This document shows, piece by piece, positions 1 through 59,474 of a DNA stretch of 64,000 nt. Under the pieces are notes generated by a model. That model saw nothing but the letters and a program-made list of their open reading frames with translations. It had not been told where the DNA came from and did no database searches. Within the stretch, counting starts at the first letter, position 1. Each line of letters starts with the position of its first letter. Location: the NCBI RefSeq assembly GCF_006345805.1, contig NW_021836000.1:124001-188000 (forward strand). The letters are read 5' to 3'. The translations under genes were made by a program, and so were the position numbers. This stretch comes from Octopus sinensis (taxonomy: Eukaryota).

Positions 1-500
1 TCAGTACACATACACGGATACGCTTATTCAAATTACTGGTGAAACCTATTCTCCTTTATAATGCCGGAACATGGGGACTTTCTGATACGAACAATTTGAA
101 GCCAGATTCCTTCATAAAGACCAACTTCGTCGCACTCTAAGCTCTTAATGGCATTCAAGGCTCAGCAGTAAAACAGTTTATGCCAGAACATCAAGCAAAC
201 CAATCTCTGATGCAGATAGAGGCTATCCGGACACATCCTAATGGTGGATTTGGATGCACCGGCAAACACCGCTATGGAAGACTATTTCGTAACTGACGGC
301 TTTTGTATCCATGGAGTCCCAATAAATACTTTCTTGGTGACACTGGAAAGAGACCTTTGGAGTGTCAGAAAACTTTTAAGGACGGGGACGATCTTGACGC
401 ATTGCGGGACGTCGGCCAAGAAAGAGGGAAATGGTCCAAACTATTAACTCTTATTGTTTCTTGCGCTGCACAAGCTTTGTCATGATCCATTGAATCGCGA
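1..500 (+). mobile_element. RTE-like LINE 3' fragment (degenerate RT C-terminus)
   Basis: Frameshifted translation gives RIRLFKLLVKPILLYNAGTWG...R*RLSGHILMVDLDAPANTAMEDYF...TLERDL...QERGKW. Same type as 36250-36650 and 50395-51333. Confidence 0.65.
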
Positions 501-789
501 AAGTGCATAAATAATAATAGGGTAACAAAATGGGCGATTTTCAGAATAGGACTGTGACAATAATTAAACTAAATAATAAAAATAATCATTATATCAATAA
601 ATAAAGAGTCAAATTACGAGTTTAGACTAAAATACTTTTCAACTAAAAATCGTATTTTCGAATAATTGATTGATCATTTAAATTTCGTGAATATTAAAAG
701 TATCGTCTTGAGTATGATACTTTTTATATTATGCAAAATTTTAAACGCCTCTTCATGATTTATTTTATTTGCGAGTGTTATTTCATCAA

Positions 790-2140
790 AAATACCACGT
801 GTTTGTTTTTCATCATCGTTTTTGAGGGATTCTTCTATTTAAACGTGTAATCAAAAAAATCTGATTGTTCCATTGGATACAAAATATTAAATTGCTTTAC
901 TGTCTCTTCATATTTCTCAATCATATAGCTAGAACAGGGGTCGGCAAATACTTTTGGAGAAGAGCCAATTTTGAACATTTTTGGAAATTTCGAAAAATTG
1001 AAGAGCCACCTTTTACCACTTGTCAAAAATTTAAATTCATAAAATTAAATAGACATTAATTAAAAAAATAATTAAAAATTCATTTTAGAAAATTAAATTA
1101 ATTAGACGCATTAATTTAAATTGCTGACTTTAGCACGTAGAGGGTTTATAACGAACGATAGTGTTGCTTTTTCTTTTCTAAAATCCTTAAACCTTTTTAT
1201 ATTTAAACATTCATTTTTAACCTGTCATTGAAAGATTCCTTCATATACAAAAGAACATTTTTAAAATAAGTTTTATTTATAGTTCGATCATTTTCTTTCA
1301 AATATTAGCGTAATTTAGGAAAATGTAAAATATTTTGTTTCCCTTTTTGCGATTTGGGACCAATTCCCCATCGGCGATCTCGTGGCTTAATAAAAAACTG
1401 GCAATATTTGCAGTCCTGGCATTGTCAGACCAACATTTAAAAGCAGAATTCTCGAACTGATTATTCTTTGTAAGTTCTTCCACAGTTTTCTTTCGGGAAT
1501 CACCAATTGGATATTTTTTGGCGAAATTTAAGTGTTTTGTGTTAAAGTGTCTCTCTAAATTTGACTTTTTATTTTGATTCAAAGTTTCCTGGCAAATGAG
1601 ACATTTCGGTAGTTGTTCTGAATTAGACGTACATGCAAAAGTTTCAGTCCATTTTGATTGAAAATGTCGCTCATTATCGATTTTTTATTAATTTTTTCTT
1701 GCTAGGCATATATCGATGTACCACAAAAAATTAATGTTAAACGTGCAAAGATTTTTTGTTATTAACAAAACAAAAAAAATAGTTAAAAATTGAAATCATT
1801 TATAAAAAAAAATAGTTAAAAATTGAAAGAGCCTACCGAAAGAGTTAAAGAGCCTTCAAAGGCTCGCGAGCCTGCTTTTGCCGACCCCTGAGCTAGAAGA
1901 TTGGATTTTTTCTTCACATGGAATCCACTTTGAATGGTGAAACAATTTTTGATAGTTTTTTCGGTTACTTTATTCTAATCAGAAAAGGTAAACAAAACTC
2001 CATTTGTATTTGTTAAATTTTTGTATTACTCAAGAAAAGCATATCCGCATTCAATTTTCCGAAGAATTTCATTAAATTTAAATTTGAACATAATTGCTAC
2101 ATATAATTTTTATTAAAATCGAGAGGCCAAATGGTCAACA
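790..2140 (-). mobile_element. Degenerate pogo/Tigger DDE C-terminal remnant, split by the hAT insertion
   Basis: KVTEKTIKNCF motif; reading continues across the 935-1890 hAT insertion site. Confidence 0.45.
935..1890 (-). mobile_element. Non-autonomous hAT element (GTF2IRD2/SPIN-like)
   Basis: TIRs CAGGGGTCGGCAAA / TTTGCCGACCCCTG; perfect 8-bp TSD AGCTAGAA (927-934, 1891-1898); BED-like remnant PKCLICQETLNQNKKSNLERHFNTKH. Left end nearly identical to 61143-61322. Confidence 0.92.
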
Positions 2141-3124
2141 ATTTTTTTATTTTTTGGCAATAATTACATACTGACGTCATGCTCAAGAAAAAAGACAGTA
2201 TAAGGCTTCGCTTCGTAGGTAATTATTTTTTAGATGGCATTATTATATATAAATTCAAAAAAATAATTTTAATAATGTTATAATAAAATATTCGTTTTAT
2301 TATAGTTAATTTTATTTGGAAAACCTAATGTAATTAGATAACCACGTCATCATTACTCATTATTTGTTTCGTTGTGCATTGTTTTCTTGTTTTATTCAAA
2401 TTTTATTCTCCTCTATTAATGGTTAATATTTTATTAAAATTGATTAAATATATTGTTGACTTACAGAATTTCATATAATATTTGAATTTTTTGTAATTGA
2501 ATTGATTTTATTTTTACAATAATTTAATCTTTTTTACATGTTAACTATTTTGTGTTGCTTTGATTTGTTTTGTTATCTTTTAATTATCCCTATATCCAAT
2601 TGCTTTGTTGTATTTTTAAATATTACTGAATTTCATATAATATTCGATATTTTTTAATTGAATTGGTTTAAATTCCGTGCATCTGTGGGACGGGAGCTTG
2701 TCCCATTCACAACGCATATGGCTGAAACCCGCAGTTATTCCAAAGCAGATGAGGTTGTTAGCTTCGCCTCTGGAGTCCAGCGTAAGCTTTCCGACCGGAA
2801 TGTCGGCTCCATTACGAGAGTACTCTTCAAACTTAAAGTCTGATTTGAGAGTTTCCTGTAAATGGAGGTCAAGGTCGTCGTTCGAGATCAGTGAGGGATT
2901 CTCTTTAGGATCAAGACTGAGACTTTATCAATTACTGAGACAAGTTTATGGTCGCCTTTGCCAAACATTTTGGTTTTCGAGAGCTCTGTCTTGAAAGAAG
3001 CTGCATCTTCGGTGCATTGGAATTTTAGATTAAAGGAGCCGGACTTCTGCATGTTATCCGGGCTTTCAAAGCAGTTGGCAATTTTTTTAAACTTTTTGAT
3101 CTTTCCCAATTCCATCCCAATGGC

Positions 3125-3358
3125 AACTGTCTATAAATTTGAGTTTTGCGGTTGGCATTTTAAGTTGTAATAAAGTAAAATATATATCAAATCAAAAGAG
3201 AAATAGTCATTGGCAGATAGCCAGAGTATTGCCTCTGACTATTGCTATAGATATTCTTTCGATTAAATACCGGTGCTCACACGGGTCGCCGGTAACCCAG
3301 TTTGTAATTGTAAATCTGAAGTTTGTAATGGACAAATTGACTTGAAAATGATATAGAT
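3125..3358. repeat. Unclassified dispersed repeat interrupted by a short CRE-like 3' end (about 3175-3300)
   Basis: Similar to 33830-33900 and 60710-60785. The insert encodes YLIERISIAIVRGNTLAI on the minus strand and is flanked by AAGTT(T)GTAAT direct repeats. Confidence 0.55.
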
Positions 3359-3365
3359 TAAAACA

Positions 3366-4449
3366 TGTCACAGTCCAGACGTGCGTCACGCCGGACGTGA
3401 GTCACTTTTTAAAAATTTATAAAAATAAATAAAAAATAACTAAATAGATATACCTTACTCCAATTATACCATATTAGTGTTTTTTATGTCTTTTTTGTGG
3501 ATAAAAGTTCATATTATTCCCCCACAAAAAACAAACATAACGCATTTTTGACCCGACATAACGTTTTATCGATTAACTTGAATTTTTTTTATTTAGAAAC
3601 AATTTTAAAATATTAAAAATTATTTTTTTAATTTCCTTAGCCGACTAAACTGTACTTTCTCAATAATATCCCTTTCCTCATTTTCTAAGTCTAATGTGCC
3701 TCCGTCCTGTTTTATCACTCTGTATGCAGATGTATCTATCTGGTCATACAGAGGATATTTTCTCGTGTTTTCATTTATATCTTGATCCATCCGTAAAAGT
3801 GCGTAATCTCCAACTGATATTTCCTCTTCATCAAATCTCCATCTTCTCCTTTTTTTCATTTTTTCGGCCGCACGCCAACCCTAAACCCCACCCTAACGCC
3901 AACCCTAACCCTAATTCTTACCCTACCCCTAGATACAATTGATTAACCTCATTGTGTGTTTGAATAGAGCTAACATATGTCTGCATAGATTTTTGGACGA
4001 GCAATAGTGTATCATTTAATTTAAGTTAGCCGTGTTCAGCTTACAAAAATAAATTTACATGTTTCAAATCTATTTTAAGAAATGAATCCAATAGTTCGGA
4101 TATTCAATCTCTTTCGAATCAACTGCACTATTCTTCAAATGTTCAAAAGTTTTTAGGTCGCTAATTCTACGTAATTCTTTACGTAATCTAAAACATTCTA
4201 CGTAATCTAAAACGTTCTCTTCTACTGATTCCGTCATCAAATGATCCAAATTGTTTAAAAGTTTTTATTTTCAATAAATCATCTTGTAATAGTGTAATTA
4301 GAAACATTTGATAACTTGCAAAATTTAAAAATAAAACACTATAATATATAATATTAATTAAGAAATTGTGATTTTAGAATGATTTTATTATATAGAAAAT
4401 ATAAAAATATCCAAAATCTGACCAAGTGACTCACGTCTGGTCTGTGACA
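3366..4449 (-). mobile_element. Ginger/Tdd-like (integrase-type) DNA transposon, internally deleted
   Basis: TGT...ACA termini; TIR TGTCACAG(T/A)CCAGACGTG(C/A)GTCAC; 5-bp TSD AAACA (3361-3365, 4450-4454). ORF 3620-3859 resembles an integrase C-terminal GPY/F-SH3 region (ISVGDYALL...RKYPL...AYRV...GGTLDL). Confidence 0.8.
3875..3931. repeat. Degenerate (CCCTAA)n telomere-like tract
   Basis: ccaaccctaaaccccaccctaacgccaaccctaaccctaattcttaccctacccc. Confidence 0.7.
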
Positions 4450-4489
4450 AAACATATAATCAAATTGATTTTTTTTTACAAATAAACAC

Positions 4490-5095
4490 TTCTTGAGAAA
4501 CTGTTATTTATTAGAAGTTAACAAAGCCATCTATCCGAAGTGGACCCCGCCAACATAATTGACGTTGCGTTGCCTCTCACGATAGCAACGGAGATCAACT
4601 GGAGAAGCCACCGGGTCTCACGTGTGTCGTGGCTTTTTAATGTGGCTAAGCGTCCAAGCTTCTTTAGGAAGCGAAGCGATTTCCCACTTATTCCTCCAGT
4701 TGTCTCGACCACAATCGGACAGAACACGAATCGATCTCGCAACGCTTCATATTTTCTCTCCTTTGCCCTCATCGTTTTTTCCGCGGCATACAATCTGTCC
4801 ACTCCGGCAATGTTGGACGGGCAGAGAGTGTCCACACAGGTTGCGTCCCAGACTAAGGGTTTCCCCTCTTCAAATGGGAAAATTATGATCCCATCAGGAC
4901 GTTTTCCATCTCCTCGGTCAAGCCCGACCGGTTCAAGTACGGCTGGGTATCCTGCAGACTCCAGGTCTCGCTTGACAATTTTGTTGATCGCCTTGTGTCT
5001 TGGAAATCGTCCTGCACTTCTTCGACAAGAGAGAGCATGGTGTCCATAACAATCGACGGTGGCCCCACACCGGCATTTGTGAGTCCGGCAAATCT
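4490..5095 (-). mobile_element. CRE-like non-LTR retrotransposon 3' fragment (CCHC + RLE)
   Basis: HALSCRRSAGRFPRH, DGKRPDG, LVWDATCVDT, PIVVETTG, ISVAIVRGNA motifs. Confidence 0.85.
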
Positions 5096-5129: not shown

Positions 5130-5362
5130 TTGATTATATTTTGTACAGAAGGAACAAAAACCTAATTTGTACAAAACTGGAAGATATGGAAAAACAGAAT
5201 TCGAAAGATTGGATACAGAAACTCTAATAAGCAATAAAATAAAGATGGAGGAGTATTGCAGAAAACTAAGAAAGGAATATAAATACAAACAATGATGAAA
5301 AAGATTTGTGGAATTATGTTAGAGCTGCAATGAAGAATACGGCGTCGTTGGTTTTTGGTATA
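5130..5362 (+). mobile_element. RTE-like LINE fragment, left half (continues at 15756)
   Basis: LWNYVRAAMKNTASLVFG joins, with one frameshift, to THKNKFKYNNEEISHFSSELKNLRIRI after 15755. Confidence 0.6.
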
Positions 5363-5525
5363 CAGTCCGACCCCGAATTGGGGCAGACCCCAGTGGTGGG
5401 GCACCCTCGGATTTTGGGGCACTTTTTTTTGGGCAACATTTGGGCAGAGTAAAATGAAAAATCGATAAAAAATACAAAAATTTTGGGGCACTATAAAATT
5501 GTGGGGGATGAAATTATAAGTAAAT

Positions 5526-7060
5526 TGGCAAATTTATCAGATGGTTTATTACCATCCGGTGTGCAGACATAATAGCACTTAACGTTATCCATTATGACAC
5601 AAGAGAAGAATAGTATCTTTCCTGCTCTCAACATGCTCTTTGTTAGGAAAGGAGCCTGTATGAATTGCGCTTTCAAACAGTTCATCCTATAACCGATGTA
5701 GATTAAACCAGCTCCAGATCTACCATTTTTCCTGTTTTCCGCTGACAGGAAGACATTGATATCTACACTCCTAGTTATGACTCTGAGATGTCTCGGATGG
5801 AATCTACCTATTGAACCTATGTTGGTTCTTAAAAGAACCCCGCCTGATGCCGATCTGTCCTTGACGATTATTGACTTCTCCATCATGTTGCTGTGATAAT
5901 TTCTGTAAGGCTCGTTGTCATCGAAATACGAGAGTGACGGATCTACATTGTCTGAGCCTCGACCGTTGTGCGGATCAATGTCATGTTGATCAGAAAAGGC
6001 ATGCACTGGCACAGTCGTGAAAGGCGGAATGTTCATAGCCTCTTGTCTTAGATTGACCATTTGTGAGGGGTCATACTGTCTAGTGATCACCTCGGTCAAT
6101 TTGCCAATTTCGTTGGTCTGAATGTGCCTTGATATCTCTGACTTGTAATGACCGACATGGTCACACAAGTTCATTTTGATAAGGCTGTCCAAAGCAGTCA
6201 GACCTTCGTCGCTGAGTGATAAAACCGCTTCGTGAAGACCCTTCATGTGGTCAACACCCATCACTCTTGTAGGGAGAATAGAAGTCAGTTTGTTAAGTTT
6301 ATCTTTCTGGAGAATCAACTCGTCATAAATGATTTGATCTTCATCCTTGAGTGTCCCTCTGAGTGGGAGAGCATTCTGAACCTTATCTCGGTTCTCGAAA
6401 TACTCTTTCCTGCTCCTTGTGGTATTTTTGCTTGCCGACGCACTCGATACAAAGTCATTTCGGATCAGGTTCGGATCTTTCATTAAGGCATCCTGCCTGC
6501 ACATTTCTTTCTCTTATTGATTTTCCAGCATCACTCTCTCTGCTTTGTCGGCAAAATCGTTAAAGACTTCTTTAATCTTATCACTGGGTAGATTATCAAA
6601 GTAAGTCTTATCAAATGTGACGGGATTATCCAGGTCATTATCCACAAAGAGTGATATGTCGGTTAATTCCAGCATATTCTTGTGATACTCTGGGTTTTCC
6701 TTTAAGTTCTCATCGGATAAATTGTTTACTGCCTCGCGGACATTTCGCATTCTTGTCAACTTGCTGAAGATGACATCAGTTTCGACGACCCTAGGCCTTC
6801 GAACAAGCTGACTTACGGATGACCCTGAATATGCACTCCTGGATAATTGTAACGATTGAACGTCACTCAAATCCGCTCTATTATTCGTTCCAGTTGTCGA
6901 ACAAACTCAAAACATTCGGCAAGTCCTCTGCTCATTGCAAATGGCATGAGAAGTGAAAAAGGAAAGCAAGGAGGAGGCTTTCGGTGTCTCGATTTTAAAT
7001 AAAACCTTTTCTAATAACTCTTCTCTTTCGGTTGCTAAGTTAATAAAATCTGTTCGTTCG
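5526..7060 (-). pseudogene. Intronless, GC-richer virus-like ORF (about 510 codons, two in-frame stops); candidate endogenous viral element of unknown type
   Basis: ORFs 6907-7164, 6514-6870 and 5491-6504 are one frame, separated only by TGA (6907-6909) and TAA (6514-6516). No micro-introns, no TE motifs; flanked by direct repeat TTATAAGTAAAT. Confidence 0.5.
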
Positions 7061-7074
7061 TTATAAGTAAATAA

Positions 7075-7213
7075 TTTTTTTGAGTAATAAAAATTTATAA
7101 GAATAGAATGCAATGGCTTAGTTTCAATCTGCCTCATTAGATATTCATGTTGAATTTCCACCAATTTCGTTATTGTCGGTTCATTTATATTTTCGATATT
7201 GTACTTTTAGGAT
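7075..7213 (-). mobile_element. Internally deleted RLE-type (R2/NeSL-like) retrotransposon end with poly(A)
   Basis: T-run 7075-7081; 3' end GAGTAATAAAAATTTATAA also at about 14298; KPLHSIL coding segment also at 15081-15105. Confidence 0.7.
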
Positions 7214-7310
7214 AAGAATTAAAAGTTAAAATACAATTCTTTTACAACATCTCAAATTGGATTTTTGTGAGAGTTTTTTGATTAAGAAAAATTTTTTTTG
7301 ATTAAAATAA

Positions 7311-8451
7311 ATGGATTATCAATGGAAACTCCAAAAAAATAAATATTGTTATCTAGGACATATTCCAAGATTTTAAACTGCTATGAAGAGCTTCGTTGTA
7401 TTAAATTGTTAAGACTACTTGGAATAAAATCCATTTGATCTCAAGCAGGTAAAAAAGCGGACAAGACCGCATTTACTTCTTCCTAGCATTCGAGAAAAAA
7501 AGATGCCGTCTTGAAGTCAGACAAAGCCACAATTCACGCATAAATTATCAAAAAACAGTTTTGAAATTTACAAAAACATTGCATCCTTCGAATTTACCAA
7601 AACAAAGTCAAACAAATTTCACATTAACCAATCAAAAAAAGATCGGCTTCGTAAGCCCCAGTGGCTGAAGACTATGGATGTTGGAATTCAAACGTCGTAA
7701 GAACCAAGTTTTCAGCCGGGGTCAAATCTTGTCAACGTTCCCCACCCGTGAGGCGACGAGTCCATCTGGCACGACACAGAGTCGAAAGGGGACCTCATTC
7801 CTTCCCCTGATCACATTACCGATGAAGAATCTCCATTATGCAAAAAACCCGTCCGGATTCAAATGAAGTGCGGTGAGCTACGGTAGGAGGCTGACAAATG
7901 GGAACTGGACATACCAGAAATTCCCCACATCTCTTTGGAGACGGATAGCTGTAATGAAGATTTGGAGGCCAATGTTGATCGGCACAAGCAATCCCTTCGT
8001 TCTTTGCTCCTTCATTTGATTAGTTAGTTGTGACTGTTTGTGCTGGGTTTGCCATGTTGTGCAAGCTTGGGGGTTATAAATAAATAAAAAAAGATCGGGA
8101 AATTTTTAGGCGAGGACTCGTAAAGCTTATAATGTTTTCCTTGTACAACAAATATTAGAAAAAACTAAAATACAAAACCAAGAAGACATATCTTTCAGAG
8201 AAATTGATACATTGGTTAGTCTGAATTGCACAACTTAAGAAATACTAGTACTATATAAACAACGGGATCGACACTCAGCACGTCGCATCACTGGACAGAC
8301 AAGTCCTGGACAGCGCCCTTTCAATGATTAGCCCGTCCCTCAAACACGTTTATTTTCTCAAGTTAGACTTGAAGCCAATCGAATGATTTGATCAAGTCCC
8401 TTGTCGAGAATGTACAGGAGGACTATTTGTTGGGTTTGAGAAAGGCAATAG
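7311..8451 (+). pseudogene. 5' fragment of axonemal inner-arm dynein heavy chain (DNAH7-like)
   Basis: Spliced EIDTL/KY*YYINNGIDTQHVASLDRQVLDSALSMISPSLK...VENVQEDYLLGLRKAI resembles the DNAH7 N-terminus (YYIHHGIDTDHVAP...EDYLLSVRKSI). In-frame TAG, a LINE insertion, and truncation after this exon. Confidence 0.7.
7648..8085 (+). mobile_element. LINE 3' fragment with (TAAA)n tail
   Basis: GC-richer insert ending TAAATAAATAAAA; TSD AAAAAAAGATCGG on both sides. Confidence 0.7.
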
Positions 8452-9836
8452 GTGAGACACTCGGCTACGAAGCATTGACGGTTAACCTGCATACATTCGC
8501 GTTTAAACCGCGAATATTTAAGTTTTATAAACAAAAATTAATGTTTTTCCCAAATTAGCTAAAAGCTGTCTTGTTAAAATAAACTTAGATCCAAAAACTA
8601 AAAATTTTATTATAATACAATTCATTATTTATACAATTCTGTGAAGTTGTGGGCGATTGCTCGTTCGGTTAATTTGTCTATCGCATCCTCCGTCTTGTTT
8701 CGAGCATTTGAATAGCAAGATTAAGGTATATCAATGTTTTCTGTTTTCTCACAAATACCACGTTGTAACGTTTGATTTAAACATGTTTATTTTAATTCAT
8801 ATTAAGAAACAAATAAATTAAAATAAATATAGTTTCATAGATATAAAATAATAAAACCTAAATAAACAAACCCGTGTCAATAAGATATTGAGAATTTAAG
8901 CATTCTCAGACAGCACGAACTTGTACCCATTTTTTACGAAGTTGATAGAAATTTGGATTTATGACGTTAAGATTTTTGAATCCATTTTGAATTTGGTGAA
9001 AATACCAAAAACTTTTGTTATCACTGAATTAAGCATTTCTCCATATTAAAGCTTGAATCATTAATGTAATCATTAGTGACTATATCGGGATTGTAAATTA
9101 AAGAAAATAAATTTAACATCCAATTTTTAAAAAAAAGCCTTTTCGAATTCTCAAATATGTTTGAATAACATCAAATGCAATGTTTTCATCATCAAGATTT
9201 CAATAATTTACAATGTTTTCATCATCAAGATCTTTGCAACGTTTGAGACAAATAATAATTATTTTCGTTTCTCTTTAAATTTTGGATAGTTATTTCTTTT
9301 TTCCCAATCATATATTCAACAAATATTTTTGGGAAATCTAACATATTCAATGAAGTGGTGATCGTTGGTAAACTTTTTTGAACAAATATCAATGAAATAT
9401 TCTTTTCGAATGTTTTATTGCGCTTGCGGCAGTTTTGACATTTTATTGTATTCCAGACACGTAAAAAATCAAAAACTCACTCAATTTTAAACACTATTAA
9501 TATATTAAAAATGCTTACTTTTTGAATTAAATCACTCACGTTAATTTTGAAGATTTTTCTGTGCGGTTATCATATGATTATAAATAATAAATTTCTTCAA
9601 GAAAATCCAACTGTGTTGTTTTTGTTTTTGAAGACATACTTTTGCCAGAATAAATGTACTATATCAAAACTTGTGGTAAATCAGCTAATTATAATTTAAA
9701 CACCATCATTCTTTATTACCGCAAAGAATTATTTATTTAAACTACCATTGTTTCACTCAATTTTATTTTGAGAATTTTTTGTACAGAAAAATTATCAGAG
9801 TTATATTTGATAAAAAGGTTATTCAACTTAGTCTTA

Positions 9837-9953
9837 ATTAAAAATAATTTAGTTTGCCTAAAGTGATAAAAGATTAATCGAAGGGAGGGTCAGCCGCCTG
9901 ACGGATCGCCAAACTGTTCCCCCGGATAACGGCGATCGAAAACCGAAGTTTTT
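9837..9953 (-). mobile_element. Very short CRE-like 3' end
   Basis: Encodes FSIAVIRGNSLAIR; near-identical copies at about 35210-35300 and 63590-63680; TTAGTCTTA on both flanks. Confidence 0.7.
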
Positions 9954-10078
9954 TTAGTCTTAGTTGAAAATTTTTTGATATTTGATTTTAATAAAGGTTA
10001 GTATTTGTCCAAAAAAATAAATTGTTAGTTATATCGATTTCCAGAGACTAGGAGTGAATAATTATTTAAAACATGTCT

Positions 10079-11443
10079 CTATCTAATATTCAGTGATTTT
10101 TTCATTTGTGATATCAAGGGCGATTGTCCTTGGCCGCATTCATCTCCATTAACATCGTCAAAATCTAAAGTCCAAACAAACATCCCTGCTAGTCCATTAT
10201 CTTTCACATATTTTCCCTACAAGATAAAGAAAAATTTATTTCCCTTTTCTTTAATACTTCTGATACTTTCATATCCCAACCAATGATAGTCCTTAACTCC
10301 ATGAGAAGCTTTTTGCTTATCGTCCCAAACTTCATCATAACCTTGATTAGAATACTAAAAATTTTTTTTAGAATAAGAAGTACCTCAATATAGGCTAGAA
10401 TTCCTGATTCTTTTGTTATCGGTCCTTGGCTAGGTCCCCCAACGATTTTATCTCCAATTTTTGGATTTTTTGATCTAGTTTTGAATCCTTGTCCGTAGGT
10501 TGGTAACCCGATGAGTAGTTTTGACTTTGGAGCACCGTGCTTAGACCAATATCTGACTACATAATCCTGTAAATTTTGAGTTTATTTAATCTGAGTACAG
10601 TGTTGAATGTATCAGCATCGTTTATTCCATATAATCCTGTATGATGGCCAACAGTGTCCGAAAATTGACCGTAGAAATCATAAGTCATTAAATTGATGTA
10701 ATCAAGATATCTAATTTTCAGAATGTGAATATTTAACCTAGAAATTTCTCTTATGTCATATGAAGACTGAATTGTCGACACTCCTGCTGAAACAGCTGCT
10801 GTCAACAAATATCTTTTCGAGCCTTTTTGAAATTCTGTGCTCATAATTTTCAAAAGTCGACTGTACGCTTGTTTTTGATTCGTAGGAAATTCCCAATCAA
10901 TGTCAAATCCGTCAAAATTGTATTTCTTTAAAAAGTCTTTTGTTTTTTTAGCAAATGTTTCTGCATTAGAGTCGCTTCTTGATACAGTCGTAAACTCATT
11001 GAGCAGTTTGTTCCACCCTCCGACAGAAAGCAAGATTTTCAAACGAGGATTCAAACGTTTAAGAGAAGTGATTCTATGAAAATCGTTATATTTACCTAAT
11101 ATATATGTAAAAAATTACCTCCAGGCAAGTCAGACCAATTGTCATTTGAAATAATAGAAAGATTATTTACATCAATGGTGCAGAATGCATATATTATATG
11201 CGTACAAAGGTTTGCTAAATGGCTGTCATCGAATTCAAACCCCCCTGGCCTGTATTTTGCCCAGTTTGTATAATAGCAGAACAATACTTTAATAATTATT
11301 CATTTTTATGCTACCTTTAGATTCCACTGGCATAAAAGAATGTGTTAAATCAATTTTTAGGATTTGAACATAAATAAAAAAACCGACTTTTTTAATTAAC
11401 AAAAACACCAATTAATTAGAAAATAACTAGTAATCAACCACAT
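10079..11443 (-). CDS. Secreted GH18 chitinase, catalytic domain only, 8 exons
   Basis: Signal-peptide-like [15 protein letters not shown]; [30 protein letters not shown], intact [11 protein letters not shown] (DxxDxDxE), [21 protein letters not shown]. Seven short introns restore an open frame to TAG. Confidence 0.93.
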
Positions 11444-11689
11444 AATGAATAGACAATTATCATAATGGAACTAGAAGTCTTTGATTTAAGGCTGCCAAAA
11501 TATAAAAGATTTACTGACTAGCAAATTAGCGTTCATTTTTTGACTGGCCATGAAAATCCGTTGGAAAAGTCCGAGTAAAAGTGAAAATCGTTATCAAAAA
11601 GCCATGGTACACTAGTTTAAATTTAAGCTTGCTAATGTGAAGATTTTTATCGCATAAGGATATTTATAAAATATCGATTTATACATATA

Positions 11690-12075
11690 ATTTATTTATT
11701 TACCCCTGCCCCCTTCAGTTGAAGGAAACCGGTGGCTAACAAGAACGAAATTGTCAATGTCGGACGCTCCCAAAGATCCCCGATCGCGATCCGGCGTTTT
11801 GAGGAATCAGAAGGTGGGCCTGGACACGAGAAAAGGTCACTGAGAGAGTGAGAATGCGTGAATTCAGCAAGGCTTATTCTTCGACGATAATTGCGTAGCC
11901 AGGTATGATGGCCACAGCGGAGACGGGCCAAGTTTATTCGGGCTTCTCCAAAAGGGAGGATTCGTTATTGTTTATTGGTGGCGGAAAGCGTCCCAGAAGC
12001 TTGTTTATTCCAAGACATCTGATTGCCTTCGTAGTTACCAAGTCGTGAATTCTCTTTTGGTTATCTCGGATGAAG
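11690..12075 (-). mobile_element. I/Jockey-like LINE 3' fragment
   Basis: ARLRCGHH...HSLSDLFSCP...DLWERP; (TAAA)n tail. Confidence 0.65.
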
Positions 12076-12399
12076 CAGCATTATTTGTTATGCCAAAGTA
12101 ATTTTTATATCCCTGAAATCCATCGAAATTTGAAAGTGGTTTAATCAGGGAATTGCCCTTTAAAATTAGGGATCAATCATTAATCAATTTCGTTACTAAG
12201 ATGACGTTATCGAAAAAAAGCTTTGGTAGACATGCAACTCGCTAGATACATATGTTCTGCTTATCTGGATAATTTGTCTACAATTTTGAGAATTTGTGAA
12301 GAACACAGATTGATCTAAATAGAGATATTGGTTCCTAGTCTAAAATATTTTCCTAAAACGTCGTGTTGAAGAATATTTGCGCCTGATTACACCAATAGT

Positions 12400-13330
12400 A
12401 TAAATTTAATTTATACAAACAAGACAAAAATTACAGATAGCTAAGTTAGTTAAAGGCCTCACGAGACACCCGACCAGCCGCGCGAATGGCGAAGACGTTC
12501 CCTCGGATCACAGCAATCGACAGACGTTCCAGGAGCCAAGAAAACTCTCTTGGATCGTGACTAGTCCTTGAAATCCGTCGACCGAGCGAGCGAAGGAAGC
12601 GGAGTGTCTTGGGACCGAAGATCCCGGAGGACTCCAAGGCAATTGGAGTAAAGAGCAGCGAGTTGGACAGGTGGCCGTACTTGAGAATCTTTCGCTCCTC
12701 GGCCTGCCTGGAAGCGTGCCCAGGATTGGCGGCGGACAGCGCGAGATTTCCCAGCGAGAACGTGTCCGAGCAGGTAGAATCCCAAATAAGGGATTTCCCC
12801 TGCTCGTAGGGGAAGGTGGACATGCCGTCAGGGCGTTTGCCATCCCCTCTATCCAATCCAACAGGTTCAAGGATAGACGGGATGCCTGCTGAGGCGAGGG
12901 CTCTCTGTATGATCGAGTTGAGTTCACTGTGACGGGGAGCACGACCGGCACTCCGCCGGCAAGCGAGGGGATGCAAACCGTACTCGTCAACAGTTCCCCC
13001 ACAACGGCATTTGTGCGACTGGCAGATTTTCAGCCCGACACGGAGGGAGATTGCAATTCTTAGGCATTCCTTGTCCAACAGGTTCCCGATGGAAGGGAGA
13101 GGGAGAGCCTTTAACCAGACACCGCTGCTTTCACAGCGACCTGCACGGAGGCAAGCGACACGGTGTTGATTGGAGACAGGAAGCAGGCCTTCGAAGATTG
13201 CCTGACAAGAGATTTCGTCCCATTGGCGCTGTACAGATTGAGAGTTGGGCAGCTTCGAACCAAACCGAGCCTCCCACCGACCACGGGCTGCAGAGTAAAC
13301 TTCAGACAATTTCCGTTCGGGGAGGTTTCT
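12400..13330 (-). mobile_element. CRE-like retrotransposon 3' portion (open 287-aa ORF with CCHC + RLE)
   Basis: SGVWLKALP, HKCRCG...HPLAC, RHSELN, RPDG, WDSTCSDT, ERKILKY, PIALESSG, LSIAVIRGN. Confidence 0.9.
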
Positions 13331-14296
13331 ACCAATTGTTATCGCTTTTGAAAAAAATAATTAATTTTAAATATCATCATTAACAAAGCTTTTAAATAAA
13401 TACGATTTCTATTGTTTTTATTTATTTTGTTTTTGAATAAAAATTAATTATTCATAAAAATCTGATTTAAATCAAATAAATCCCGTTTAAATTAAACAAA
13501 TCTGAATCAAAATAATTAATTAAATTAAAACCCCTTTCATGTCTTTTAATTATGTTTTTTTACTTAAAAATTGTTTTTTTCTTTGTTACTCTTCAAATTT
13601 AATAGAGATGGCAGCAAATTCTTTAAAAATTGAATAAAAATTTTAAGGAAAACAATTAAGCAACCGACATACCAAATCATGCTTTTAATAATTATATAAA
13701 AATTTTATAAAAAAAACAAAATCAGTAAAAAATTAAGTTGAGAGTTTATTTGAAAAGAGCATTAGTCAAAGAGTTGTCATATATAGGCAATATCCGGGGT
13801 CAACATGGATAGTTACAAACTTGTGTCGGAGGAAGCTTCAAGCATATTCCTGTACTTTGCTTTTGTTGAGGAATGTAAAGAAACTATTTTTACCTAATTA
13901 TAATCACCATTTTTTAAGCGAGAAACTGATTTTTCTTTAATATTACTGAAAAGATCATCAATGCATGGTTTTACAGCAGTGTTTCTTAACGTGGTCCCCA
14001 GAAATATGTTTAGGTCAATTAATTCATTTTATTCTACTTTTTTTTGTTATTTGATTGTAATGGTTAATCGCAAATAGATTGATTCTTATGTCCAATATGG
14101 ATTTACAAAATATACTGGATCTGAAAACGTCGATATCTTGAAAATAAAATTGGAGATTATTTCCCAGTTAGTGAACCAATTCGTCAGGGAATATGGCCAG
14201 TGTCAAACTCACTGCGGGCACGTCCTCTAATCCCGTTCTTCTTCTATATGACAATATTTGCTGCATAAATGCGGTTTAAAAGTTAAAAATTTTATT

Positions 14297-15102
14297 GAGT
14301 AATAAAAATTTATAATAGCATTTTTTAAGCATCTATATTTTTTTAGAACAATCTTAGTCTCTTATGCCAAACTATCATAGTCGGTGCATAGAGATCCTCG
14401 TCCACTTGTATTCCTGATTCAGAAGAATCCTTCGGTTGACACTCAATCACTGCTTGCTCCTCTTCGGGAACCGATATTCCATGTTTTGTCTCCACCTGCA
14501 TACTCTCCAATGTTTTGTGTTTGGATATATGCCTCCACTCTGTCTTCCACTGCGATAGAATCCAGATGACTTTTAAAGAATCTTGAGACAATTCCATCCC
14601 AAGTAAGTGCAACAGGGATAATCTTCACTTTAGCCCGATGAATCGCCCCTAATTCATTTGTCAAAAGGTCATATTTGTGGAACTTTTTCACTTCAACTTG
14701 CTTTAGGCAATTTTGTGAGGTAATCCCAACTTCAATGAATGTAATTGTATTTCTCATCTTGTCTTCGACAAAAATATCTGGTTTATTGTTTGAGACAGCC
14801 GTATCCGTAGAAATAGTGGTGTCCACTCGAATTTCCACGTAGACATTTGACAACTTCATTGTGCCGTCTTAGATAAGAGCTGTTCAGCATTCTTCCACAT
14901 CTGGTAACGGTCTTCTTTGCTGAGTTGCAGTGATTGCATTAATTTTCTCCGTTATCAAAAAAACAAATTTCGATCCTGTAGTAGACAACACATTCCTTCA
15001 GTTCTTGCAGAGTTGTTTCCATGAACTAGCTATTCTGCAGATTCATTAACATTAACTTCAGTGTCCTTCAAACACTGGAAAAGAATAGAATGCAATGGCT
15101 TA
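14297..15102 (-). mobile_element. RLE-type (R2/NeSL-like) retrotransposon 3' fragment
   Basis: LQDRNLFF, CNHC, NKPDIFV...FIEVGITS...EVKKFHKYDLL, IIPVALTWDG (PD-(D/E)xK nuclease). Confidence 0.85.
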
Positions 15103-15182
15103 GTTATAAGTAAATAAAATTATATTTTATTAATAAATACATAATTTAAATTTACACGTTTATTTACATTTTTTTGTTGTCA

Positions 15183-15668
15183 ATGGTTATAAACTACGAA
15201 ACAAAATTAAAGATTGCTAAATTGATATTGAAGAACAAATTATCTGAAAGACAGATAATTCAAAAATACAAAATTAGTAAAGGCATGATTTCACGAATAA
15301 AAAAACAATTGTGCCTTTTCTTGAACAAGGAACTGTAAACGCGGATGAAGATTCAATTGAAAAGATTCGTGATTCCGTAAGAATCGAAGATAGCATTACA
15401 GAAGAATTAATCAACAATGCCGTAAACGAAACATTGAATGGGGAAAATGACGAATTTGTAGATAATATTTATAACGAAGGCTTAGAAAAAGATAACATGA
15501 AAACAATTCTAAGAGAAACGCAAGATTAGCTTGATCAGTTAGAGAAGAAAATTTTTCACATATTTCCTGAAATGCTCAAAGAATTTTACGATTTTTGACT
15601 TAATTTTATAAAAAAATGTAAGAAGTAAAAGGAAAACTGCGGATAAATTAACTGATTATTTTTCTAAA
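15183..15668 (+). pseudogene. Internally deleted Tigger transposase (HTH N-terminus + acidic C-terminus)
   Basis: MVINYETKLKIAKLILKNKLSERQIIQKYKISKGMISRIKKQ (HTH) fused to an acidic tail ending in LTDYF, upstream of the right TIR. Confidence 0.75.
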
Positions 15669-15755
15669 ATTGATTTTTGATGTTTAAAAATCTCTGTTTT
15701 TATTAAACCCTCACTTTTTGGGGCACTTGGTGCCCAAATTCAGGGTCGGACTGTA

Positions 15756-16200
15756 CTCACAAAAACAAATTCAAATATAACAACGAAGAAATATCACACT
15801 TCTCTTCAGAACTAAAGAATTTGAGAATTAGAATTAATAAATATACGAGTCAAGACCTAAAGATTGTTCGTAGAATGATTTCCTTCCTGATAGAAGATAT
15901 TCACCTGGCTGTCAAAATCGCAAATACCGCTTCCAATTTTTTTAAGACCACTCGTGAGTTCCACAAGGGGATTCGTTGTCGCCTATTCTATTTATTATTT
16001 ATCTTGAGGGTGCACTTAGGGATCATCCATCAATGAAAAATATTATGAGTTGATTTATGCGGATGATCAGGACTTTGTATCAGATGATTCTGAATTTCTC
16101 AAATACATAAACGAACATTTTCCTAACATTTTATAAAGATGGTTCTTGAATTTAAACACTGACAAAAATGGAATTTACATTATTCAGACGTGCAGAGGGA
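15756..16200 (+). mobile_element. RTE-like LINE fragment, right half
   Basis: VPQGDSLSPILFIIYLEGAL and IYADDQDF RT motifs, with frameshifts. Confidence 0.75.
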
Positions 16201-16249
16201 ATATCCGACGAGACGTTGAGAATTTAATCTTTTTCACATTTTAACCATT

Positions 16250-17480
16250 TAATACTGTGGTATTACATTCGTTACGACAGAGAAGATTATAGAGGTCATG
16301 GACCCAATGAAACACGTGTCTAGAACGTAATTAATCCACTGGATCGTAGAGATCGGTCGGCACTGGCTTGAGTCATTTGCCAAGATCGCGAAAGGCGGAA
16401 GAGTAACTTCGAATCTCTTTCTTTGGCTTTTGACTATAGCGTCTTTCATCGCATTTGGTTCTTCATGAAAAGGACGTTCTGTTTGTATATTATTGATATC
16501 TGACATCCCGATTCGTTCTTTCAACATCAATCAAATGGGTTTATCTCTAATCTGAAGCCTTATTATAAATTAACGTCTTTAGTTACTAATAACTAACTAA
16601 TCTGTATAATTCTCCTCCTTTTTGGACCGTTGCACTGGATCTGCGTATTCTCCTCCTCTAACACTTCATATGACACATGAGACACATCTTCCGGCAAATC
16701 TGATGGATCTGTTGTTTCTCTAGCCAATTTTAGGAGGTGGTTGGTGGCTCTCGAAATTTGTTCCTCATGCTTTTCAATTTCCACTCCATTTTTATGTTCA
16801 ACAAGCATGGTTTTCAATGTCTTTTTAATCGTCAGCGATTGTATATACGATCTAGTGGAAGCATCCAACTTCAGTCTTTCCATATAAGACTTATAGAATT
16901 TAAAAACTATCCCGTCCCATGTGAGGACAATGGGGATTATCGTTACCTTCGCACCGTGGATTTGAGATAATTCTCCAGCAAGAAATGATAATACTAAATT
17001 TATTTGAAAAGTTTAGATAAAATTGATTCTTAATTATAGCGTTTGCTTTCAGTCGATTCTGCTCCTCTTCAAGCTAATGTTTTCGACTGGTACACTTATC
17101 TATTTTACAGGGCAGACCACTTTTGTGGTTGTTCTCGAGTCCGATTTAATCGCATGATTCGCCGTTGTAGGCAGGAGTTTGTACTCCGGGCGCATGCTTT
17201 CCAGTGTTTTCTTGATTACGATTGTCTGGACATATGCCCGCGTTGAATAATGGTCTTGTAGCGAATTCTGGTAATGCTTATAGAATTTGGATGTTATTCT
17301 ATCCCACGTGAGAACTTTTTCATTATGATTGAACCTCAATTCGCTTGCCTAAAGGTCGTATTTATGTAATTTCTCAACTTCCACATGCTTCAATGATTGT
17401 TGAGAAATAATCCCAACTTTGATCAGTGTAATGATGTTCCGAACTTTGTCGTATTCAAAAACTTTCGATTTATTATAATT
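16250..17480 (-). mobile_element. Two tandem RLE-type retrotransposon 3' fragments
   Basis: IIPIVLTWDG...YIQSLTIKKTL (16593-16985) and VGIISQ...EKLHKYDL...LTWDRITS...YVQTIVIKKTLES (17100-17480). Confidence 0.75.
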
Positions 17481-17889
17481 GACTACAAAATTGAGTAAAG
17501 CGGTTTTTTCGTATCTCTTCAATTAAGTGCTTTCCTTGCAAATGTCCGGAAGGTAGGCCAGAATGAATTCTCACGTACCGAGATCCATTAGGAAACCTGT
17601 ATACCCCTTTCTTAATAGAGTAATTCAGAGATTTTCAATCTTCTCAGGTTTTGTTGACGCGTCTACATAATTAGGATCGTCCGCGTAGCAAGAGCCAATA
17701 TTATACAATGACTTTCATATTTTATGTACGTCATTAGTCAAAATGGAATAAGCTTATCAAATCCTGAAAAATCAAAATTCAAGTGATGATCGTACATATG
17801 TACATCATCACGGAATCGCATTAAGCCACCACGAAACGTTTCGTAACCCCAAGCAATAAGTGAGTTGCTTCTGTGCTTCAGGGATGCTG

Positions 17890-18590
17890 CTTACCAGCTT
17901 GCGGAAGTGGAATGCTGCCGTGACACGCCGGTGAAAGCTATGAGACAAATAGAAAATTTATCTGATGAGGAGATAGAGAGTGAGGAGGAACTGGTTTCGA
18001 ACTCTTCTTGTTTTTGCGCATTTGTAATACTAAATACTCTTTCACAATTTGAATTTGATACTGGAATTGACTTTAGCACTGTGTAGCCGTTAAGACTGTA
18101 CACAGCTAAAACGTCACCATCGAATAGTTTGATACTGTCACTTTCATTCAATTGTTCTCCGGACAGTGTGGGATGTTCTTTCTGTCCTTTTTATGGACGT
18201 TAGTATTAACTGTTGGGGAGGTTGTTATTGGCTGCGAAAAGATTCTGTTGATGTTTTCTCCGGAAAGGAAATGGATTCATTCTAGTGCGGATAGGGATTT
18301 CAAGCGCAAATGGGACAAGGCTGATTAGACGAGACTATTTTTCCCAGCTCTCTAAAATAAGCGCATTTTTGATAAACGATGAATGGGGAAACGTTTAGTT
18401 TGGCGGACTTGGTAATCCGTACGGATATTTTTAAAAAACCTCGGAAATCGGATAGTTCAATGAGAAATGAGTTGACATCCAGATTTCCGAAATTTTTTTG
18501 TAGGTCCAATTGGGCAAATACAATTTTATTATTTGTCCTTTCATAGTTTCTGAAATAACCGGCATCGAACAACAACAGCAACGACAATAA
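17890..18590 (-). mobile_element. hAT transposase C-terminal remnant
   Basis: Dimerisation motif LKSIPVSNSNCERVFSITN; upstream LDVNSFLIELSDF. Confidence 0.55.
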
Positions 18591-18639
18591 TTTTAAATTT
18601 TTTAGAAATACAAATCCATTTATTAAATAATAATTAATA

Positions 18640-18813
18640 AAACCTGTTTTTTGCGCGTTGTAAATTTAAATTAAAAATATCTTTTAGAAAAAATTAAAAA
18701 AATAATTAAAAAAAGCATAAGACTTTACTTTACGAGAATTATAAATTTTAAAAAATTCACATATCACACAATATAAAAAATTTAGAAAACCAGTTTTTTT
18801 TGCGCCCACTGTA
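18640..18813. mobile_element. Solo Tc1-like terminus with inner and outer direct repeats
   Basis: Ends CCAGTTTTTTTTGCGCCCACTG-TA; inner copy CCTGTTTTTTGCGCG at about 18643. Confidence 0.5.
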
Positions 18814-18829
18814 TTTGGTATTGTTGTCT

Positions 18830-19330
18830 TTGACAAATGTGGCATCGGATAAAAAATCGATGATATACAAAACAGTTATTTTTCTTAAAATTTGAAAGAG
18901 GACGCATTAAAGATTTCCAACTTGCTTTGACCCTTATTTAAAGTCTTGCTCCCAATCCTAAATGGGGAGATGTCAATATACATAGCTAGCAGTTGTCACA
19001 TTTGTAACGGATTTATTTTGGTCGTAAAGTTAATGCAGGACATCCAGTCTTCTCTGGTGTAACCCTACTATAAGAATATTTGAGAACTTTGAGACTGCCC
19101 TATCCCATTTTAAGATTACCGGAATAATCTTTACTTTTCATTTGCAAGAAAATCATATTCGTGATATTTCTTTATTTCAATTTTCTTTGGAGTTTTTTAA
19201 ATAATGTTAAGATAAATAAATTTGTACTTTCTTTTGTCTTGTAGACAAAAATGTCGGGTTTATTGAATAAGGCAGCTTTGATTTTGGCATTTTGGGTCGA
19301 AATAGACAACCTAAATGTGCTTTCTATTCA
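18830..19330 (-). mobile_element. Degenerate RLE-type retrotransposon fragment
   Basis: NKPDIFV, KKYHEYDFLANE, IIPVILKWD. Confidence 0.65.
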
Positions 19331-21050
19331 TTTTTCGGTCCTACATACATTTAAATATAACCGAATGTAGTAAATTTTTTCTAACTGTTCAAAATTAAGA
19401 TTTATTTGAATAAGAAAGAAAGAAATAAAATTAAGTTTAGTTAATGATTGTTTCTGTTTCTGATTCGATCTATAATATAATCAGCTCGCTCCATCAAAAT
19501 TCGTATAAACCGTTCAATTATGTTGATTACATTTATATCATCCAGTATCAGCTCCTCTTCGTCTAACCATTGGTCTAACTCTTCAAGTGTAGATATGATG
19601 TGGATAATTTCATTTATTTCATTCTCAAAATCGTCATTGTTCTCAGTATTTTCCGGGGTTGGAATTCTTTGCACCATTTCTGTTTTTCTCAATTTTTTGC
19701 TATTTATAATAAAATTCAACACGTGAGAAGATTTTGTTTTAATTCAACATTTTTATTAATAGTATCACTTTTTTGAAAAATATCAAAATTTTATGACTGA
19801 ACTATTTTTTAATTTCCTAAGTTTTATTAAACAAAATATATTTTAATTGTTCAAATCTTTTATTTTACACATTAGATATATTTTTTGAATTGTAATTTGT
19901 CATTAATTTTTATACATATTATGAGTAATTTATATTTAACATTATTGTGACTCATTTCTTTTGCTAGTTTATTAATTTAAACATTATACATTAATTTTGA
20001 AATAAATTATCATTTATTGAACTGAGTTGCAGGTTTTTGCTATCAGTTCATTTCATGTTAGGTAGTAAAGGCGTTTTACGATAAATTATGAAAGACATCA
20101 GATCAGACACAAGATTTACTTGCAATGCACAATATTAGATAAAAAAGAAATTCAGGAAAAATTAAAACAAGCTTTGTTTAATCTTGGTTTTGGGAGCATT
20201 TTGAAATTTTTACGCCCAAAGATCAGATCAGACTTAGGCCTCGATAATAGAGCTAAAGTTGGCTCACATCCCGCCGTATAGCAAAATAAATGAAAAAATT
20301 TGTTTCTTAAAAGGAAAAAGAATGACTTTTTGGTTCAAAATATTTGTTTTTACTGCCACTAATACACTTTACTGAAAAAATAAGAAGTCAATTCATTCCA
20401 GATAATTAGTCTGCTTCACATTGAAGCATCAGGGCCATTATTTGTTTAGAACATAATTTATTAATGTATAGTTCTGTCCCGATGTACCCAAATATTCATT
20501 TAAAACATAATTTGATTTTATCTGAAGGGGCACAACCATCCTGATACACTCCCCATTTGAAATCATACTAAAAACACGCTCAACAACTATTTCTTCCTCC
20601 TTTTATTTTCCAGTAAAAAATTCACCGAAAACAATCTCCTTTTACTTCACAAGACACAGCAGAGTCGCAGGAACTTAGCTAAGCCACTTGTGCAATCACA
20701 TCGACTTTTCGACACGTTCATGGACAATTTGGAATCTACCTGGTCAATAAAGACCCCGTGACTTGAGTGACGGAGACCAAGGTGTCTCTCCCTTTCCATT
20801 TTTGTGACGTCGGTGCGAAAAAGGAACTGGGAGAAGTCGTAGATACTCAGGAGGTAACACATTTTGAGAGAGGCATTGTCAGTAAAAGGAAAGCAGGCCA
20901 AACAAATACTGTTGTTAAAATAAAACGTACAAAGTTTTATTTTGTAATTTAAAAATAGATTTATTAAATAATTAGGTAAATTTCATTTTGAATATTTTTT
21001 TGTAAAATCACTATTGGTTTCACGTTTGGTTTTACGTGATTTAAGTTGAA

Positions 21051-31769: not shown

Positions 31770-32488
31770 TTATCTTGTTGGCAGAGCTCTTTTGACCTCA
31801 TCTCGGAAGGTCGGTACAAATAAACCCTGGATCAAGAGTGAACGCTCCTCAGACGTCTTCAATACCGTCCCCAGAGTTATTATTCTTGACAAGACTGCGT
31901 TCCCCCCGTTGTAAAAGCCAACAGTACAGAACCTTAGTACAGACACTGGGTCATAAGGGTTTGATCCCAACATCTTATCAAGAAGACAACACAACTTATC
32001 CAATGGTTGCTTCTCTACGTACTTTAAGGAGAATTTAGCGACAAGGTTTTGATCAGGGTTAAATGACGGTGACAGACGCGCCATTGCTGAGTTGTATCTC
32101 TCGATTAAGGCCGTCACGGCCTCGGGGTTCCTCGATTTTACTTGACTATATCGGATCGGGAAGAGTACCCGCATAAAGGCCTGAGCCCATTCGCTCGCTG
32201 CAGGATTCTTCAAAGACTCGGCAGGTCTAGGCCTGCCTATTGATATAGGGTCTTTGGCTCGAAATATCTTAAAAGCTTTTGCTCCCAGCTTGTACATCTT
32301 CGTGGTGGGTTGCTGAGGAAATACGCCAATGCGTATGCGATAAGCTCCTGATTAAAGTAATCAAGCCTCCCAAGCTCGTCGATTACGTGGGTTCCGATAC
32401 TACCAACAGAGAATGCGTTGATCCAAGTTCCACTCGATTCGCATTTTCCAGTCACTAAACAGGCACGTCTGTGTTGGTTTGATTGGTT
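31770..32488 (-). other. Endogenous viral element: rhabdovirus/Mononegavirales-like nucleoprotein fragment, copy 1 (175-aa ORF 31770-32297)
   Basis: DKLCCLLDKML...SVLRFCTVGFYNGGNAVLSRIITLG...LIQGLFVPTFRDEVKR parallels the conserved rhabdoviral N core (KIVAAxDMF..xxLRxGTxxSRFKDCAAL...WI...xDExxR); GC-richer and intronless. Confidence 0.75.
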
Positions 32489-58755: not shown

Positions 58756-59474
58756 TTATCTTGTTGGCAGAGCTCTTTTGACCTCATCTCGGAAGGTCGG
58801 TACAAATAAACCCTGGATCAAGAGTGAACGCTCCTCAGACGTCTTCAATACCGTCCCCAGAGTTATTATTCTTGACAAGACTGCGTTCCCCCCGTTGTAA
58901 AAGCCAACAGTACAGAACCTTAGTACAGACACTGGGTCATAAGGGTTTGATCCCAACATCTTATCAAGAAGACAACATAATTTATCCAATGGTTGCTCCT
59001 CTAAGTACTTTAAGGAGAATTTAGCGACAAGGTTTTGGTCTGGGTTAAATGACGGTGACAGACGCGTCATTGCTGAGTTGTATCTCTCGATTAAGGCCGT
59101 CACGGCCTCTGGGTTCCTCGATTTTGCTTGACTATATCGGATCGGGAAGAGTACCCGCATAAAGGCCTGAGCCCATTCGCTCGCTGCAGGATTCTTTAAA
59201 GACTCGGCAGGTCTAGGCTCGCCTATTGATATAGGGTCTTTGGCTCGAAATATTTTAAAAGCTTTTGCTCCCAGCTTGTACATCTTCGTGGTGGGTTGCT
59301 GAGGAAATACGCCAATGCGTATGCGATAAGCTCCTGATTAAAGTAATCAAGCCTCCCAAGCTCGTCGATTACGTGGGTTCCGATACTACCAACAGAGAAT
59401 GTGTTGATCCAAGTTCCACTCGATTCGCATTTTCCAGTCACTAAACAGGCACGTCTGTGTTGGTTTGATCGGTT
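58756..59474 (-). other. Endogenous viral element: rhabdovirus-like nucleoprotein fragment, copy 2 (175-aa ORF 58756-59283)
   Basis: Same junctions and same upstream frameshift as copy 1; 5 amino-acid differences in the 175-aa ORF. Confidence 0.75.

Follow-up and report, generated by a model that had tools for sequence, protein, structure and literature searches.

Anatomy of the insert and its target

The window analysed here is the whole 64,000-nucleotide stretch taken from the Octopus sinensis assembly (contig NW_021836000.1, positions 124,001 to 188,000), and the segment under study, 5526–7060, is a chimera of two parts, in which a LINE 3' end, on the plus strand, lies head-to-head with a copy of an orphan viral gene on the minus strand. 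The gene copy (5526–6897, minus strand; 42% GC), likely a rhabdovirus P gene, runs for some 457 codons, from about codon 9 to a point three codons short of the stop, and is 87% identical in amino acids and 76% in nucleotides to an uninterrupted 466-codon paralogue at locus L033 on contig C12637. It carries neither a 3' UTR nor a poly(A) tract and, having no start codon and one true in-frame stop (6514–6516, minus strand, found by reading the frame), it is dead as a gene. The original prediction described this segment as a minus-strand frame of about 510 codons broken by two point stops. The minus frame is indeed continuous over 5526–7060, with stops at 6909–6907 and 6516–6514, but its first open reading frame and the stop at 6909 are antisense LINE sequence; the 5'-most 55 'codons' consequently do not belong to the gene, and the length of 510 codons and the second stop cannot be maintained.

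The LINE piece (6898–7060, plus strand) comprises 163 nt and closes with AATAAAA and a (TTCG)n tail. It is the 5'-truncated 3' end of a young, multi-copy LINE of the APE-RT type, contrary to the earlier view that the insert has no recognisable transposable-element motif. When the assembly was searched with the insert, 40 of 294 candidates being scored, 29 of the 43 matches listed were found to cover just 6898–7062, at 94–99% identity, and comparison of 12 LINE-tail loci identified 6898–7060 as the LINE 3' end with its (TTCG)n tail. Long copies of this LINE encode a zinc knuckle, an endonuclease and a reverse transcriptase; ordinary 5' inversions are seen at two of the 12 loci, and identity between the part present in the window and its counterparts elsewhere reaches 98.8%. 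Two further features that had been remarked upon are confirmed: the insert is richer in GC than its surroundings (41.8%, against 32.9% for the window), though this is not diagnostic, several other 1-kb bins of the window reaching 41–50%; and it has no micro-introns, alignment with the uninterrupted paralogue showing no intron-sized gap.

A sequence check showed the 12-mer TTATAAGTAAAT to be present on both sides of the insert, at 5514–5525 and 7061–7072, as expected if it were a 12-bp target-site duplication, but a third copy at 15104–15115 complicates that part of the original prediction. The first copy (plus strand) is native to the target, a DNA transposon whose left arm occupies 5361–5525 (plus strand) and has 41 matches in the assembly: among 13 sibling elements the 12-mer is single in ten and absent from three. 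Insertion into a Tigger element, as had been proposed, is borne out, since the element is of pogo/Tigger type, with a TA target and CAGT terminal repeats, and a sibling copy (L044) encodes a transposase with a CENP-B-type HTH (HTH_Tnp_Tc5) plus DDE_1. The second 12-mer (7061–7072, plus strand), directly behind the LINE tail, is likely the target-site duplication, and is matched at 11 of its 12 bases in the probable allelic copy. A similar AT-rich word stands at that place in two of four copies of the repeat that follows 7072, and the case for a 12-bp duplication is slightly weaker for it.

Beyond position 7072 none of the 13 siblings shares the flank of the window that begins at 7073. The Tigger-like element resumes instead after the third 12-mer, in all five siblings compared, and its internally deleted right arm, including this 12-mer, extends over 15104–15755 (plus strand) to a terminal repeat and TA. 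Between the second and third 12-mers lies an 8-kb block (7073–15103) of repeats together with a chitinase gene with tiny introns. Paralogues of the chitinase segment occur at four other places with 92–95% identity, and pieces of one repeat are found at both ends of the block, its two halves in swapped order. It was likely brought to this site by an event of its own, a duplication at the DNA level. The simplest order of events is insertion of the LINE/virus chimera with a 12-bp duplication, followed by this DNA-level duplication; the pair of 12-mers at 5514 and 15104 could also bound one complex insertion.

Copies and probable identity of the orphan gene

A protein search of the assembly, which scores just the best candidates, and in which parasite DNA may be incomplete, gave nine matches to the orphan gene in five loci, none of them arranged exon by exon. 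The copies include a probable allele of the window copy (98.8% identical), which is broken by a frameshift near the C-terminus instead; a partial copy at L034 (G000:C12418:24000-34000; 78% nucleotide identity); and the uninterrupted copy on C12637. There is also a rearranged mosaic copy at L035 (G000:C5037), in which window pieces 1–3366, 4449–4860, 5968–6495, 6601–6741 and 8359–8685 recur at 85–99% identity; this contig is short, and either misassembly or a real rearrangement may apply. The C12637 copy has the form of an mRNA retrocopy, with a 13-bp duplication, an 18-nt leader, a 60-nt trailer and an end of the type ATG(A)n. Its 5' end overlaps the duplication, and the start signal is ambiguous, resembling both AACAA and (C/T)AAGAA types. 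The same locus contains a strongly diverged ORF (L033:8824-9123, plus strand) which we take to be histone H4-like, and presumably in line with a fast-evolving parasite.

Over the 448 codons compared between the window and C12637 copies, differences number 50, 21 and 254 at the first, second and third codon positions respectively (pS 0.92, pN 0.063). Nearly all differences are thus synonymous, and purifying selection between the copies is shown. These values, taken with the identity of up to 98.8% between the LINE part and other LINE copies, place the divergence before the insertion, and from this comparison of sequences the gene would appear to have diverged under selection beforehand, as in a replicating RNA virus.

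Searches for relatives of the orphan protein in collections of 5.8 billion and 1.84 billion proteins, in Pfam, PDB and Atlas, and in IMG/VR and JGI contigs, gave none, and two AlphaFold models (pLDDT 35 and 34) were unusable. A likeness of its C-terminal part to 30K movement proteins is, we presume, possible. The assembly is rich in rhabdovirus fossils, with 32 matches to N and at least 33 to L. The L fossils resemble rabies and VSV L most closely among solved structures (E 4e-90 and 4.5e-84), other full polymerases being listed at 5e-8 or weaker. The N protein of a sister lineage found no match in 5.8 billion proteins, and queries with N and L found no related contigs in IMG/VR.

One fossil, L139 (G000:C9340:10000-19999, minus strand), preserves several genes in order. 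The end of N comes first, followed by gene 2, of 417 aa, then by gene 3, which has no Pfam match, then by G (Pfam E 1.2e-11) and finally by the beginning of L. TG(A)7 is found at all four junctions, AATG(A)7 ending two of the genes and TTG(A)7 the other two, and AACA follows three of the four stop signals, being absent at the junction of genes 2 and 3. For salmon-louse rhabdoviruses the stops are reported as TATG(A)7 and the starts as AACAA/AACAG or (T/C)AAGAA, and L139 has in common with those viruses its TG(A)7 stops, AACA starts and short intergenic spacers (PMC4234470).

Gene 2 of L139, which has 16 matches in the assembly, is the one match of the orphan protein outside its own copies, and a weak one. 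The two agree at 16 of 45 positions (36%) with a pairwise E of 3e-6, and a further segment aligns collinearly at E 0.13. In a set of 2,849 ORFs taken from 197 sequences each is the best match of the other outside its own family (E 0.002–0.014), and none of 3,000 shuffles reached the score. Comparison by hhalign gave a probability of just 18%, and adding further gene-2 copies did not improve the profile–profile comparison. Both proteins have an S/T-rich and then an acidic N-terminal segment, a composition that fits P. The second position in the N-P-M-G-L array is occupied in L139 by this weak homologue, while among the fossils examined the orphan itself was not found at a native N-P-M junction; at L034 an N fragment runs straight into the orphan copy. 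The stop and polyadenylation signal is represented by the ATG(A)n end of the C12637 copy, an end that the window copy does not have. In the protein collections searched, no catalogued rhabdovirus P showed sequence similarity to the orphan. Taken together, these observations leave little doubt that the orphan is of rhabdovirus origin, and it would probably be the P gene of an unsampled rhabdovirus; the 'P-like' protein of the original prediction stands as the best assignment, through its weak match to gene 2.

A point against the P assignment is that at another locus, L108, an unrelated ORF follows N. The junction there lacks TG(A)7, however, and an ORF of this type stands before N in L110 and L164; judged from this arrangement, the pairing of N and ORF at L108 may be a chimera. 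The ORF belongs to a viral-looking family (L108:5135-5929, plus strand; L110; L164; L176; L034:49-462) with 18 matches in two lineages about 33% alike, and may form the first part of some longer protein from a different virus.

It is improbable that the gene is instead a rhabdovirus accessory gene, or that gene 2 of L139 is not P. At 466 and 417 aa both proteins are long for P, which counts in favour of an accessory gene, as do the existence of the second ORF family after N in L108, with its 18 assembly matches, the missing AACA at the gene 2–gene 3 junction and the failure of gene 3 to match Pfam; against this, the ORFs lying between N and G in L139 number exactly two, as in a canonical N-P-M-G-L genome, and the two proteins share the S/T-rich and acidic N-terminal segments already described. 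There is only a small chance that the gene comes from a partitivirus, as its capsid gene or as an additional segment, even though partitivirus polymerase fossils adjoin the L034 copy and also occur in the window, the size would suit a 1.5-kb segment, and the same LINE captured the polymerase. In the C12637 copy, however, poly(A) follows ATG, like a rhabdovirus stop signal; the one match of the orphan is to a rhabdovirus gene; and another ORF (L089) looks like the capsid, by a motif likeness without database support. The mRNA form of the L033 copy, the abundance of rhabdovirus fossils and the match to L139 gene 2 led us to drop the capsid reading. Slighter still is the chance that the gene is a host processed pseudogene or a LINE ORF1/gag. 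The C12637 copy does resemble an ordinary retrocopy in its poly(A) and target duplication, and LINE ORF1 fragments adjoin two of the copies, but the nine matches show no exon-by-exon arrangement, synonymous sites are saturated among the copies, and the orphan has no zinc knuckle, belongs to no Pfam family and matches no LINE ORF1 protein among the 2,849 ORFs. A best match to LINE ORF1/gag and a spliced host parent, the two outcomes named beforehand as fatal to a viral reading, were both looked for and, within these searches, not found.

Virus–LINE junctions and the route of insertion

The insertion of a foreign, viral RNA by retrotransposon machinery, as first proposed for this segment, is upheld, and the insert was likely written into the Tigger-like transposon in one twin-priming event. 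On this scheme the LINE endonuclease would have cut the target; one DNA end would have primed reverse transcription on the LINE RNA, of which 163 nt were copied, while synthesis from the other would have begun close to the viral mRNA's 3' end and run nearly as far as its 5' end; head-to-head joining of both cDNAs would have followed, and a later or coupled DNA-level event would have put 8 kb between the second and third 12-mers. The layout agrees with twin priming in that the LINE 3' end with its (TTCG)n tail forms one end of the insert, and the partner RNA lies 5' of the truncated LINE in the opposite orientation. For cellular RNAs, a study of LINE-1 chimeras associates template switching with the same orientation and twin priming with the opposite one (PMC13174262). 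The window copy starts about 40 nt inside the 5' end of the mRNA and stops about 70 nt short of poly(A), which fits an mRNA template primed from the second DNA end. A point against this scheme is that primer homology at the left junction amounts to just 1 nt, as measured against a strain 24% divergent.

Junctions were tallied in all fetched loci, the count being confined to viral pieces no more than 80 nt from a LINE recognised by any of three references, and 14 classes were obtained, or 12 after merging two duplicates. In this sample, which is non-random in that loci were partly chosen for holding a LINE and one LINE reference was cut from a counted locus, seven of the eight distinct junctions on the truncated side of the LINE are inverted, so that the viral piece meets the LINE with its 5' side, and one is co-oriented (one-sided p 0.035); over all junctions the proportion inverted is 10/12 (p 0.019). 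The LINE 3' side accounts for four junctions, three inverted and one co-oriented, which may be separate later insertions. Five of the seven inverted junctions fall within about 55 nt of a start codon (the P-like gene, N twice, L and the polymerase) and two are internal. The inversion and the proximity to start codons together favour twin priming on viral mRNA. L069 has the same layout as the window: there a partitivirus polymerase is paired with a copy of this LINE, and the duplication measures 11 bp.

The same P gene copy might also have arisen by a template switch, if the LINE reverse transcriptase had left its own RNA and continued on the minus-strand genome of the virus; the product would likewise be a truncated LINE with antisense viral sequence on its 5' side. 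The multi-gene fossil L139 shows that genome-length or read-through RNA was also copied, and one junction (N beside a LINE-B ORF1 piece) is co-oriented. We nevertheless regard such a jump as unlikely: each end of the insert falls no more than about 70 nt from an mRNA end as preserved in the C12637 copy, the clustering of junctions at the start codons of N, P and L is not predicted by a genome template, and the partitivirus case at L069 would need a free minus strand, when the minus strand of a partitivirus is normally inside the capsid. The combined reading, a rhabdovirus P gene captured by twin priming, is considered reasonably likely as a whole.

Neighbouring viral fossils, the host and known systems

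The window holds more viral material than the two virus-like sequences credited to it at the outset; at least five pieces can be counted, namely the P-like gene, two N fragments, a partitivirus polymerase fragment and a partitivirus-capsid-like fragment. The other insert originally read as viral N (31773–32351, minus strand) lies inside a Tc1-like element, has 32 matches in the assembly and is indeed rhabdovirus-like, a close relative scoring against Rhabdo_ncap at E 7.5e-4, below the curated cut-off. A second copy (58759–59337, minus strand) was duplicated together with its Tc1-like element (96.6% identity over 1.5 kb). The broken fragment of a partitivirus-type RNA polymerase (17524–17881, minus strand) is 55–76% identical to the polymerase at L034 and L069, which is assigned to RdRP_1 in Pfam and is itself 58% identical to named alphapartitivirus polymerases; those polymerases are 47–59% identical to the polymerase fossils over most of the query. 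An ORF fragment at 16153–16479 (minus strand), 42% identical to the L089 ORF, is, like that ORF, presumed to be partitivirus-capsid-like from a motif likeness, and has no support from Pfam or PDB. Both partitivirus-type fragments are present in the allelic contig too. By the evidence here, the partitivirus polymerase fossils are neighbours of the insert and not its source.

Several other observations concern the setting of these fossils. L034 is a dense mosaic of N, the orphan gene, partitivirus polymerase and three LINE families, and G fragments lie upstream of the window on C12471, at 66912, 81592 and 98741; the clustering of viral pieces at L034 and C12471 recalls, in our own estimation, piRNA clusters. 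A 104-codon ORF beside viral pieces at L034:3734-4045 (plus strand) belongs to no family and has no other copy among the fetched loci. ORF fragments beside viral pieces at L110:1955-2782 (minus strand), L086:2-1405 (plus strand) and L095:675-1292 (plus strand) may represent other RNA viruses. Another L fossil, rhabdovirus-like but from a separate lineage, is found at L130–L132 (G000:C23:23.14 Mb); the contig there is very long and may be that of the cephalopod itself. Finally, a long tandem array of 36-nt units, open in several frames, is inserted in a LINE at L070:1-2940 and L112:6250-10000.

The chitinase gene of the window has GT-AG candidate introns of 22–32 nt, as predicted from its sequence. 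The genome of the dicyemid Dicyema japonicum has a mean intron length of 38 bp and many LINEs (PMC6736024). Judging from the candidate introns, the cell in which the insertion took place was probably that of a dicyemid parasite co-sequenced with the cephalopod. In four of five RNA runs no contig matched 5300–7300, and in four of five the matches on 7100–20000 were of 42 nt or less; these near-empty results mean that those runs are not shown to contain this organism, and are uninformative on expression or a live virus.

LINE-made viral fossils are already known, as are antisense chimeras of LINEs with cellular RNAs. Endogenous bornavirus and filovirus elements made by LINE-1 (EBLN) arose when a LINE copied the mRNAs of negative-strand viruses, and they show target duplication (PMC3205384); the C12637 copy fits this description exactly, poly(A) included. 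The window copy differs in that it has no poly(A) and is inverted against the LINE piece itself, in that it represents a rhabdovirus gene, likely P, and in that its host is probably a dicyemid. Closer to it in layout are the antisense RNA/LINE-1 chimeras ascribed to twin priming, involving 5S, tRNA halves, U5 and some mRNAs (PMC13174262). In these, a non-LINE RNA likewise lies antisense and 5' of a truncated LINE, with the start of the RNA near the junction and duplications of 7–17 bp, as here. The partners in the present case are viral mRNAs of 0.8–1.7 kb from two virus families, and the LINEs are not L1 but of a two-ORF APE type with short tandem tails; the word 'viral' occurs zero times in the main text of that paper.

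The literature searched, which included few subscription papers, contained no description of repeated antisense virus/LINE chimeras, and no account of a dicyemid or octopus rhabdovirus describing these inserts. Rhabdoviruses of cephalopods have reportedly been treated by Rey-Campos et al. in 2023. What appears to be new is the repeated occurrence in one assembly of antisense virus/LINE chimeras, drawn from two LINE families, three genes of rhabdovirus origin and one of partitivirus origin. Their layout allows the nature of the template, mRNA or genome, to be tested from junction positions alone, and the orphan protein could be placed by gene order and stop signals in sister fossils where searches of 5.8 billion and 1.84 billion proteins were blank. 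Should the host prove to be a dicyemid, the fossils document RNA viruses in a phylum from which the literature searched listed none. It is tempting to speculate further, and very tentatively, that active LINEs of a dicyemid routinely use twin priming to capture mRNAs of its RNA viruses, which become fixed in antisense orientation at clustered loci, and that this would amount to a non-LTR antiviral small-RNA archive; the fossils would then represent several lineages of an unsampled group of dicyemid rhabdoviruses whose P protein belongs to none of the known families, and the rhabdoviruses of cephalopod transcriptomes might in part be those of this parasite.
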